64,000 bases of DNA, from assembly GCA_030693235.1 (NCBI GenBank), contig JAUYBE010000006.1, forward strand, positions 71,189 to 135,188, written 5' to 3'. Position numbers and translations under genes: made by a program. The notes under the pieces are model-generated. The model did not search any database and had not been told where the DNA came from. It saw only the letters and a program-made list of their open reading frames with translations. The stretch is from a bacterium. GTDB lineage: Bacteria > Patescibacteriota > Minisyncoccia > UBA6257 > UBA9933. How positions within the stretch are numbered: the first letter of the stretch is position 1; each line of letters starts with the position of its first letter. Positions 52,548 to 53,927 of the stretch are shown here, one piece after another.

Positions 52548-53927
52548 ATGAAATTTCTATCTTCTTTAACTAAAAAAGATTTGCAAAATAAAATTTGTTT
52601 GTTGCGGGTTGATTTGAATATTCAGAACGCGGACTTGTTTAAAAAAAATATTCATCCGCGTATTTTGGCGGTTTTGCCGACGATTGAATTTTTAATTAAA
52701 AACAAGGCGAAAGTGGTTATTTTATCCCACCGCGGCAGACCAGCCCCGCTAAGGCGGGGAATTTCTAAATCCGAATTTCTAATTTCTAAACAATTTTCGC
52801 TAAAACCTTTCGCGAAAATATTATCGTATTTATTAAAAAAACAGGTTCATTTTATGGATTTGGATTTTTTGTCATTGCGAGGAGTCCCGCAAAGCGGGAC
52901 GACGAAGCAATCTAATAATTCAACGGAGATTGCTTCGCCTTCGGCTCGCAATGACACAGAAGGACAGTTTCGCAATTCAACGGTGGGCAGTATTTTTCTT
53001 TTGGAAAATTTAAGATTTTTTGACGGTGAAGAAAAAAATGACATTAAATTGGCGAAACAACTGGCATTGCTTGCGCATGGCGATATTTATCCCGTTAGAA
53101 ATAGTCCCGCTCGGCGGGACGCGATTTCTAACGGGATTTACATAAATGACGCTTTTGCGGTAAGCCATAGAGCTAATGCGTCGGTTGCGGCTATCACAAA
53201 ATTTTTGCCGTCTTACGCAGGTTTATTATTGGAAAAAGAGATTAAAAATTTGGATAAAGTTATGAAAAATCCCCAAAAGCCGTTAGTAATGATTTTGGGC
53301 GGCGCCAAAATTTCTGACAAAATCGGTGTAATCAAAAACTTTCTTAAAAAAGTCAAATGTCAAAAGTCAAAGGTCAATTGTATTTTGCTCGGCGGTGGAA
53401 TGGCGAATACTTTCCTGGCGGCTCAGGGATTGCCGGTCGGTGATTCTCTCTACGACGCGGACCTGCGCGGACAAATACGCGGACTGACGCGGATAAAAGA
53501 ATTTAGACAGAAAGTTATTTTGCCGATTGACGCGCTGGTTTATAAAAGACAAATTCTAGACATTGGACCGAAGACTATTGAAAAATATTCAAAAATCATT
53601 GAAAATGCCGGAACAATCATTTGGAATGGACCAATGGGCCATATTGAAGATAAAAAATTCAGAAAAGGAAGCGAGGCGATTGCCAAATCTATTATTAAAA
53701 GCAAATCTTTTTCAGTAATCGGCGGCGGGGAAACCACTGCCGCCTTTCAGGCGGCAACGCGGAACTACGCGGAAAAACACGCGGAACTACGCGGAAAAAG
53801 TCTGCGTCAGTCTGCGTCAAGTCTGCGTAAGTCCGCGTTGTTTCTGTCCACCGGCGGGGGAGCGATGTTGGAATATTTAGCCGGCAAAAAATTGCCCGGA
53901 CTGATGGCTTTAGAATCAACAAATTAA
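52548..53927 (+). CDS. pgk: Phosphoglycerate kinase. Six or more in-frame repeat-element insertions lengthen it to 459 aa
   Basis: PGK motifs VILSHRGRP, FLLENLRFFDGEEKND, NDAFAVSHRA, ILGGAKISDKIGVI, IGGGMANTFLAAQG, IWNGPMG and IGGGET. Extra segments map onto DNA palindromes. Confidence 0.85.
   Translation: MKFLSSLTKKDLQNKICLLRVDLNIQNADLFKKNIHPRILAVLPTIEFLIKNKAKVVILSHRGRPAPLRRGISKSEFLISKQFSLKPFAKILSYLLKKQVHFMDLDFLSLRGVPQSGTTKQSNNSTEIASPSARNDTEGQFRNSTVGSIFLLENLRFFDGEEKNDIKLAKQLALLAHGDIYPVRNSPARRDAISNGIYINDAFAVSHRANASVAAITKFLPSYAGLLLEKEIKNLDKVMKNPQKPLVMILGGAKISDKIGVIKNFLKKVKCQKSKVNCILLGGGMANTFLAAQGLPVGDSLYDADLRGQIRGLTRIKEFRQKVILPIDALVYKRQILDIGPKTIEKYSKIIENAGTIIWNGPMGHIEDKKFRKGSEAIAKSIIKSKSFSVIGGGETTAAFQAATRNYAEKHAELRGKSLRQSASSLRKSALFLSTGGGAMLEYLAGKKLPGLMALESTN

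Follow-up and report, generated by a model that had tools for sequence, protein, structure and literature searches.

In-frame palindromic elements and tandem repeat arrays in phosphoglycerate kinase and other housekeeping genes of a Patescibacteria genome

The pgk gene and its six repeat segments

The phosphoglycerate kinase (PGK) gene pgk, at 52548-53927 (+), lies in a 64,000-nucleotide stretch of a Patescibacteria genome (contig JAUYBE010000006.1; the whole stretch is referred to as the window) and carries six segments of repeat DNA along its length. The window has a G+C content of about 39-40% and contains 23S and 5S rRNA genes, the RNase P RNA, 15 tRNA genes and about 60 open reading frames (ORFs), mostly housekeeping genes, and about 15 genes within these 64 kb are affected by such repeats. 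Here, we present evidence that the repeats have probably been inserted or expanded at the DNA level, and that selection keeps those copies which preserve the reading frame, are free of stop codons and lie in tolerant loops.

The pgk frame is uninterrupted over 459 amino acids (aa) and is, as originally predicted, longer than normal, by 60-85 aa relative to Patescibacteria PGKs, which mostly measure 370-400 aa and among which those of Patescibacteria / Candidatus Wolfebacteria are the nearest. Its product matches the Pfam PGK profile from end to end (E=1.6e-95, profile positions 3-379 of 379) and retains all of the columns that do not vary among 107 Patescibacteria PGKs. An AlphaFold model based on the 107-sequence alignment reached a mean predicted local distance difference test (pLDDT) score of 87.4 and a predicted template modelling score of 0.86, and Foldseek ranked solved PGKs first for this model with a target-normalised TM-score of up to 0.86. 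Confidence was low at residues 61-80, 101-140, 181-190 and 411-430, which overlap with the inserts, and pLDDT fell below 50 at residues 118-132. By sequence and predicted fold, pgk is an intact, working-looking gene. That pgk should instead be a decaying pseudogene, or the inserts artefacts of assembly or binning, is hardly credible: the unusual length speaks for it and nothing else, while the frame is open, the invariant residues are all present, the PGK fold is confidently predicted and the same inserts, or analogous ones, are present in assemblies made independently from other samples. Decay of the host genes had been named in the original prediction as an outcome that would speak against it; the genes are intact, and the accompanying claim that functional essential proteins tolerate the inserted loops holds for their intactness, with tolerance itself suggested by sequence and predicted fold.

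The segments were judged against solved PGKs, against 13 and then 106 relatives, and by codon alignment. The closest relative, L001, has a pgk that is 75% identical (BLASTP; 85% over aligned columns). A syntenic relative is represented by L002-L004 (RNase T 96% and PilN-like protein 90% identical), and the relatives L005 and L006 span mraZ to pgk. All six flagged segments, each on the plus strand, coincide with repeat DNA recurring in the window; five of them add length to the protein, whereas the sixth, DLRGQIRGLTRIK, overwrites a native helix, and the prediction of six extra segments thus stands for the repeat DNA throughout and for the extra length in five cases.

Segment 1 (52743-52790; peptide APLRRGISKSEFLIS) is extra relative to solved PGKs, but other repeats occupy this place in other PGKs of the candidate phyla radiation (CPR), than which it is just about 4 aa longer. 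It consists of a G+C mini-hairpin, CCCCGC-TAAG-GCGGGG (52743-52758), which encodes PLRRG and is identical in L001 and absent in L002, followed by a degenerate array of AATTTCT heptamers (52759-52790, encoding ISKSEFLISK). A similar hairpin sits within a GTCATTG-type unit at 24630-24645, and a perfect copy of the AATTTCT array is found in an insert of the 23S rRNA gene at 8860-8889. Segment 2 (52870-52956) is a palindrome composed of two GTCATTGCGAG...GAAGCAATCT units in inverted orientation and contains an inner hairpin, GTCCCGCAAAGCGGGAC; it contributes some 30-40 extra aa and is otherwise present only in L001. Segment 3 (53091-53135) is a 45-nt element with inverted ends CCCGTTAGAAAT and ATTTCTAACGGG around a hairpin, GTCCCGCTCGGCGGGAC, and encodes PVRNSPARRDAISNG; it resembles a miniature inverted-repeat transposable element (MITE) and is called a micro-MITE below. 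It is flanked by the duplication copies ATTTAT (53085-53090) and ATTTAC (53136-53141), accounts for 17 extra codons and is specific to the window, being absent from all close relatives that were fetched. The filled site reads ATT TAT (45 nt) ATT TAC, and L001 has the empty site GGC GAT ATT TAT ATT AAC.

Segment 4 (53348-53377) is an AAGTCAA heptamer array, in which the extra peptide KCQKSKVN corresponds, in the codon alignment, to exactly three additional units (21 nt, 7 codons) relative to both L001 and L002. Segment 5 (53455-53497), an array of 10/11-nt ACGCGGAC units common to L001 and L002, adds at most 4 aa and encodes, as DLRGQIRGLTRIK, the native helix found in all PGKs (residues 304-314, pLDDT 95). 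Segment 6 (53757-53838) is an inverted array of four ACGCGGA(A)nnn units followed by four TCYGCGTnnn units, which adds about 20 aa and is specific to the window at this loop.

Recurrence of the repeats in other genes, spacers and rRNA

Short-word BLASTN of pgk against the window, with further loci added by repeat finding and additional scans, bore out the claim that the pgk segments sit on repeats recurring both within and between genes, with matches in trmD, rnhA, the 23S rRNA gene and a spacer. Positions 52927-52956 of segment 2 are identical to 24665-24694 in a spacer (E=8e-11) and are the reverse complement of 54931-54959 in rnhA (E=3e-10). The AAGTCAA array at 53350-53377 is 96% identical to 22403-22430 in trmD (E=3e-7), and 52760-52790 of segment 1 has its counterpart at 8860-8890 of the 23S rRNA gene (E=3e-4). 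The ACGCGGA/TCCGCGT family of segment 6 is found also in trmD, ftsI, murF, recR and lepA.

Insertions had been predicted in a number of other genes, and those in rnhA, trmD, lepA, rsmH, murF, recR and ftsI were confirmed against relatives or solved structures; the one in pcm is marginal, amounting to a C-terminal tail and 4 aa, and secA and smc carry arrays. In rnhA, a GTCATTGCGAG-type palindrome lies in frame at 54931-55002 (+). The 36-nt palindrome CCTGCCCGCATTGCTACGCAAAGCGTTGCAGGCGGG in rsmH (34467-34502, +), encoding PARIATQSVAGG, has a copy in lepA (40840-40875, +) that is identical at 35 of 36 positions, is read in the same frame and constitutes an exact 36-nt insertion relative to L005 and L006; no flanking duplication was seen around this palindrome. 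Three arrays within 22272-22596 (+) of trmD, of the ACGCRGA type (22272-22307), of AAGTCAA units (22403-22431) and of the AACTTTA type (22563-22596), add 14, 3 and 5 aa, respectively, relative to a solved TrmD structure. The 51-nt insert of murF (approximately 37341-37391, +) combines a TCCGCGT-type array with a following GGCGCGAAGCGCC hairpin, an ACGCRGA array in recR (39301-39337, -) accounts for about 30 nt more than in L005 and L006, and orf124 has 30 nt of repeats beyond its relatives. A second micro-MITE copy, of 30 nt, is positioned in frame near the N-terminus of an SLT-domain protein (15210-15239, +), between ATAAAC and GTAAAA. The repeat families found make the predicted number of at least ten element families in one genome plausible.

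The GTCATTGCGAG...GAAGCAATCT units, also written GTCATTGCGAG/GAAGCAATC, occur singly, as inverted doublets (36561-36635, 52870-52956 and 54931-55002) and in clusters (24585-24850 and 36561-36635), and 4 of 10 half-sites of this type are in coding DNA. The spacer at 24138-24928 (about 790 nt) is crowded with at least five such units. At 24309-24381 it also repeats part of the pilin-like gene upstream: these 73 nt are 74% identical to the 3' end of that gene (24066-24138).

The repeats extend to ribosomal RNA. A 178-nt insertion in the 23S rRNA gene (8849-9026, -) is located at the tip of a hairpin, near position 687 of the Rfam LSU model, and is built of inverted heptamer arrays of AATTTCT, AAATCCC, TTGGTCA and other units; it is predicted to fold into one long hairpin (-78.1 kcal/mol, z=-9.6). 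With rRNA and related genomes affected too, the observation is stronger than first stated. The original prediction is partly supported in that it was right in spirit but too uniform in detail.

Gain, loss and replacement in related genomes

Arrays turn over fast, with different repeats found at orthologous codons of related genomes. Where the C-terminal loop of the window pgk has the inverted 4+4 ACGCGGA array, that of L001 is occupied by CCCTAWA heptamers and that of L002 by AAACTCA heptamers; after GRP, the G+C hairpin and AATTTCT array of the window have their counterpart in GTATCAA heptamers in L002; and the codons of the rnhA palindrome hold a ACGCGGAC array in L002. In lepA at 39719, ACCCTAA units of the window correspond to ATTCTAA units of equal length in L005, and L006 has 51 extra nt. 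Both L005 and L006 bear repeat inserts of their own at places that are empty in the window, and across the 107 PGKs the same few sites bear repeat-like peptides of many kinds. The segments shared with the independent assembly L001 (1, 2 and 5) are 90-97% identical at the nucleotide level, and the inserts common to both are conserved like the protein core (residues 61-80, 100% identical in aa and 97% in nt), so that they have lasted through a considerable degree of divergence. Ancestral lineage-specific loops, lacking nucleotide similarity between copies, had been proposed as the finding that would overturn the original prediction; relatives instead have clean empty sites, and the copies resemble each other at the nucleotide level.

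These comparisons also bear on the proposal that the additional segments are adaptive loops peculiar to this lineage, serving for example as interaction surfaces, with the repeat-like DNA being secondary. The core-like conservation of the inserts shared with L001 and the recurrence of the same insert sites in many PGKs would suit such loops, as would the distribution of the 7-mer ACGCGGA/TCCGCGT, whose 23 occurrences in the window are all coding, with none in 6.9 kb of spacers where about 2.5 would be expected. But the closest relatives either lack inserts or have unrelated sequence at those codons, the same DNA is present in spacers and rRNA, the inserts are predicted to be disordered or of low confidence, and the frame in which one and the same element is read differs between hosts. 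We regard adaptive loops as quite improbable, and insertion or expansion of DNA repeats as the better account of the segments.

Identity between the window and the syntenic L002 is very uneven over 52548-63938. RNase T (96%), the PilN-like protein (90%) and rnhA (86%) are close, while pgk (62% by BLASTP; 74% over aligned columns), leuS (62%) and NMO (46%) are not, which suggests recombination or gene replacement at some loci.

A family of very short mobile elements

The family to which segment 3 belongs, with CCCGTTAGAAA as its conserved end, was sought in metagenomes with the pattern CCCGTTAGAAA-N(8-38)-TTTCTAACGGG. Among the matches listed, to which all counts for this family refer, there were 131 copies on at least 120 metagenome stretches (loci L010-L129). 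The copies share inverted ends of 12-14 bp around widely varying interiors, and their flanks form direct repeats, with the pattern N-T-W-W-A-C to the left of the element and G-T-W-W-A-N to its right. In 91 of 129 copies the two flanks agree in their central dinucleotide, compared with 24 +/- 4 when partners are permuted, and flank positions 2-5 are identical in 83 copies, against 14 on permutation, which implies a target duplication of 4-6 bp. The CCCGTTAGAAA family thus behaves as a real mobile element, ultra-short and MITE-like. The prediction of in-frame mobile micro-elements holds for at least this family, but much of the repeat DNA consists of 7- or 10/11-nt arrays.

Judged by eye, the host proteins look like IF-2, lipoyl synthase (LipA-like), PrmC and others. 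In a distant PGK, P0018 (locus L130), a 48-nt member with a different interior occupies the same ATTTAT target as in the window pgk and is flanked by ATTTAT on both sides; nearer relatives are without the element, and this reuse of the target argues for target preference together with structural tolerance.

The original prediction proposed that copy lengths should be multiples of three inside genes, and for this family they are: length was divisible by three in 29 of 32 copies located in ORFs of 150 aa or more, whereas 21 of the 70 copies that lie outside ORFs had such a length (Fisher p=6e-9). Copies within ORFs use two stop-free frames only, PVRN..ISNG or TPLE..FLTG. The inserts might nevertheless go untranslated. 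In the byp elements and G+C clusters of yeast mitochondria and in gene 60 of phage T4, short hairpin-forming inserts interrupt the frame of a coding sequence and are bypassed, and removal from the mRNA would have the same effect. The inserts described here do form hairpins, and the micro-MITE in pgk is flanked by matching ATT TAY codons, which are possible take-off and landing sites. Unlike the byp elements and T4 gene 60, the window inserts keep the frame and have lengths divisible by three. Every insert is in frame and without stops, stop-free frames alone are used, and the excess of multiples of three over the one third seen elsewhere would be needless if the inserts were bypassed or spliced. 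Bypass or removal is therefore very improbable; the maintained frame and the selection for multiples of three imply that the inserts are read through.

Larger relatives of the micro-MITE carry cargo. In L092, at 2993-3134, its ends enclose a whole tRNA(CAT) gene with a GCTCA duplication, and L015 has a 196-nt member with nested G+C hairpins at 9051-9247. A long autonomous element with micro-MITE ends was sought in the window and across 688 kb of fetched loci, without success; the search of the latter yielded cargo variants only (the 196-nt version and the tRNA carrier), besides ordinary genes between unrelated copies. A reading of the CCCGTTAGAAA palindrome as an integron attC site was dropped on inspection, as the GTTAGA/TCTAAC cores are in the opposite order to the R''/R' of attC, and a regular 113-nt spacing in L075, which had appeared CRISPR-like, is a plain tandem duplication.

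Tandem arrays in coding and non-coding DNA

Tandem Repeats Finder returned 32 loci with period-7 arrays in the window, compared with 1.95 in block-shuffled sequence. Units are shared between unrelated loci: AATTTCT in pgk, the 23S rRNA gene and a spacer; AAGTCAA in pgk and trmD; AACGACC in secA, smc and pcm; CCTAAAA / CCTAACA in spacers and rsmH; and the 10/11-mer ACGCGGAnnn at nine loci. CCCTATA units were found in lepA and GAATTAA units in leuS. The arrays are often paired in inverted orientation and able to fold.

Relative to coding DNA, in which 18 period-7 arrays fall within 52.6 kb, spacers are about five times richer in them (11 in 6.9 kb). A period of seven cycles through all three reading frames, and a coding array must consequently be free of stops in all three. 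Of 12 coding arrays, 7 use stop-free units, and the remaining 5 have without exception degenerated, to unit identities of 73-82%. The median unit identity amounts to 82.5% within genes as opposed to 97.5% outside (p=0.04), and the AATTTCT array, perfect in the 23S insert, is broken up in pgk. A quantum of 21 nt (three units of 7 nt) for heptamer arrays in genes was considered and rejected: it fits pgk (+21) and smc (42 nt), but +24, +30 and +51 nt also occur. Within the window there is, in addition, a perfect (GA)14.5 tract at 22914-22942 in the leader of the pilin-like gene (22881-24137), read as ERERERERE just upstream of the GFTLIELL prepilin motif; the tract is a candidate for slip-strand switching.

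Local events alone might generate arrays of this kind: in an A+T-rich genome poor in repair, short duplications that arose by chance could be extended through replication slippage, without any movement between loci. The number of array units does vary among relatives for many segments, the equal-length arrays at lepA 39719 differ by concerted unit changes, and some arrays overlay native sequence without a change in length. But identical units appear at unrelated loci and even across genomes: AAGTCAA is common to pgk and trmD, AACGACC is found in each of secA, smc and pcm, ACGCGGA occupies 9 loci, and CCCTAWA is present both in the window lepA and in pgk of L001. In addition, near-identical palindromes of 29-36 nt are found in different genes, and the CCCGTTAGAAA family has flanking duplications and at least 120 dispersed copies. 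A local origin is contradicted by this evidence as the sole explanation. A purely local origin is unlikely, although slippage has a place in the mechanism that we propose.

Proposed origin of the inserted segments

The proposed insertion or expansion of repeats at the DNA level, followed by selection in genes, draws on repeats, empty sites, a flanking duplication, a length filter and array turnover, all of which are observed directly. Palindromic micro-elements (the 45-nt CCCGTTAGAAAT...ATTTCTAACGGG, the 36-nt CCTGCCCGC... and GTCATTGCGAG/GAAGCAATC) would be inserted as units, the micro-MITE at T-W-W-A-type targets with a 4-6-bp duplication. The 7-nt and 10/11-nt arrays would spread among loci, expand, contract, degenerate and replace one another, presumably through slippage and through conversion between dispersed arrays. 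Within genes, only copies that keep the frame, contain no stops and lie in tolerant loops, linkers or termini would persist, and the same few permissive sites would therefore be hit repeatedly. The ribosome would then read the repeats through as extra or replaced surface segments.

Several points weigh against this explanation. Pfam scans of the window ORFs revealed no transposase or other mobilising enzyme for any of the families, and the tandem arrays lack flanking duplications or any direct sign of transposition. Some arrays replace native sequence at unchanged length (the pgk helix at residues 304-314; leuS at 58940), and the length filter was observed for one family, in metagenomes. Reuse of the same sites could in part reflect ancestral presence and repeated loss, and the coding-only distribution of ACGCGGA could hint at an origin at the coding level, or a functional one, as opposed to neutral hitch-hiking. 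Translation of the inserts and activity of the PGK appear likely from sequence and model, and we infer the neutrality of the extra peptides as well as the enzymes or repair routes that would move the repeats.

Comparison with known repeat systems

Rickettsia palindromic elements (RPEs) are the nearest precedent. As summarised in PMC10969869, which draws on Ogata et al. 2000, about 44 copies of some 150 bp are present in R. conorii, and the peptides they encode are translated as extra segments that the protein fold appears to tolerate. The window resembles this description in having several palindromic families in frame in unrelated housekeeping genes of a small-genome bacterium. It departs from the RPEs in size and taxon, with units of 21-90 nt in Patescibacteria, whereas RPEs are elements of about 100-150 bp (about 150 bp in that source), encode a conserved peptide of 30-50 aa and are specific to Rickettsia. 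The window further differs in that many units are tandem arrays and not palindromes, one family has a clear flanking duplication, a single gene holds six segments and rRNA is also invaded. The RPE-style colonisation that had been claimed thus stands as in-frame insertion into unrelated genes, but membership of the RPEs does not, given the unit lengths of 21-90 nt against about 150 bp and the different taxon.

The CCCGTTAGAAA family is like bacterial MITEs (PMC10969869) in its terminal inverted repeats, short target duplication, lack of coding capacity and many dispersed copies, and also in occasionally carrying cargo, as with the tRNA gene in L092. Inverted repeats, target duplication and dispersed copies are all found for the CCCGTTAGAAAT/ATTTCTAACGGG family. 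Bacterial MITEs usually measure 50-500 bp or more, in contrast to the 30-60 nt of the CCCGTTAGAAA family, which also has a hypervariable interior and for which no cognate transposase is known. The GTCATTGCGAG...GAAGCAATC units, as imperfect palindromes of about 30-45 nt in inverted doublets that form hairpins, recall repetitive extragenic palindromic (REP) sequences and their REPIN doublets (PMC3116915). REPINs are extragenic and are accompanied by a RAYT transposase gene (PMC3116915), whereas GTCATTGCGAG copies occur in genes too and no RAYT was found in the 64 kb; Pfam scans of the window ORFs likewise gave no Y1 transposase. The likeness of the GTCATTGCGAG units to REPINs is one of structure and layout.

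Cyanobacteria reportedly contain short tandemly repeated repetitive (STRR) heptanucleotide sequences and small dispersed repeats, that is, tandem heptamers and hairpin repeats of less than 30 nt, some of them in RNA and protein genes. The window is similar in its strong over-representation of tandem heptamers (32 against 1.95 in shuffles), but differs from what is reported of STRRs in its Patescibacteria host and in its units (AATTTCT, AAGTCAA, AACGACC, CCTAAAA, CCCTATA and GAATTAA). Intervening sequences and expansion segments are known from bacterial 23S rRNA, and the extended 178-nt hairpin at a helix tip (8849-9026) is of a comparable kind; unlike them, it is made of heptamer arrays that are seen also in spacers and genes.

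The system had been called previously uncharacterised. The literature searched contained no description of such in-frame repeats in Patescibacteria, which is weak evidence of novelty. Selfish DNA in essential genes has so far been known mainly from Rickettsia, and the window represents a denser case in the little-studied Patescibacteria. It offers a measurable signature of selection in the multiples of three within ORFs, the stop-free frames and the tolerant loops. It also serves as a warning that, in genomes like this one, repeat DNA may underlie differences in protein length, unusual peptides of low complexity and 'lineage-specific loops', and segments of this kind would disturb alignments, trees, gene calling and structure prediction. 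Testable questions arise as to what moves elements of 30-60 nt, why units of 7 nt are preferred and how loops come to be reused, and for the first of these a GIY-YIG element beside pgk is a concrete candidate.

A candidate mobiliser beside pgk

A tiny element at 54531-54851 contains a gene for a 94-aa GIY-YIG nuclease (54534-54818) and no other gene. Its ends are inverted repeats of about 20 bp, CCCAGTAATTCAACTTCAA and TTGAAGTTGAATTAACTGGG, flanked by a GTATG duplication, and it is inserted exactly at the start codon of rnhA, where the duplicated ATG starts both genes; the close relative L002 lacks it. An 87-nt copy with the same ends and no ORF lies just after rnpB (55687-55773), with a CTTGC duplication, and is likewise absent in L002. 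A decayed copy with co-varying ends is present in an unrelated contig (L018, minus strand, about 1380-1625), and identical or near-identical GIY-YIG proteins are found in several neighbourhoods (L131-L150), where they always end 33-34 nt before the next ATG. To our knowledge, insertion-sequence families with an enzyme of the GIY-YIG type have not been described.

At the right end of the element, 7 of the outermost 8 nt agree with the micro-MITE end, and a link between the two is put forward as a hypothesis, a lead suggested by sequence. A connection of GTCATTGCGAG units with GIY-YIG genes found no support, as only one of four window loci was near such a gene and none of the fetched loci was. 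Taken further, this clade of Patescibacteria might possess an undescribed system, possibly driven by GIY-YIG enzymes, that actively installs and exchanges hairpin-forming repeats at permissive sites. We consider such a system rather unlikely. If it exists, it would cover core genes, rRNA and spacers, and comprise both the elements with terminal inverted repeats and target duplications and the 7- or 10/11-nt arrays; it would amount to a new class of transposable element, with a GIY-YIG 'transposase' and micro-MITE derivatives, and be a steady source of surface-loop variation in essential proteins. In L126, at 1516-1990, a different GIY-YIG ORF separates a full tRNA(CAT) gene from a duplicate of its 5' part, and looks like an insertion into the tRNA gene.

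Other features of the window

The 23S rRNA gene seems to be interrupted near its 3' end (5908-6788, -), with the LSU model matching 6788-9735 and 5908-6501, and a LAGLIDADG endonuclease ORF (6315-6758) is located in this region. The interruption looks like the kind of rRNA intron or insertion that CPR genomes are known to have. The SurA-like gene is separated from pgk by about 10 kb (42204-52436) that are absent in L005 and L006, where pgk follows directly; this region is a defence island, containing a RhuM/Fic protein, tRNA-Gly, RadC, a type I restriction-modification system (hsdM, hsdS and hsdR) and a Shedu SduA_C ORF. Finally, an HNH endonuclease ORF of 194 aa (3261-3845, -) overlaps the 3' end of secA on the opposite strand.

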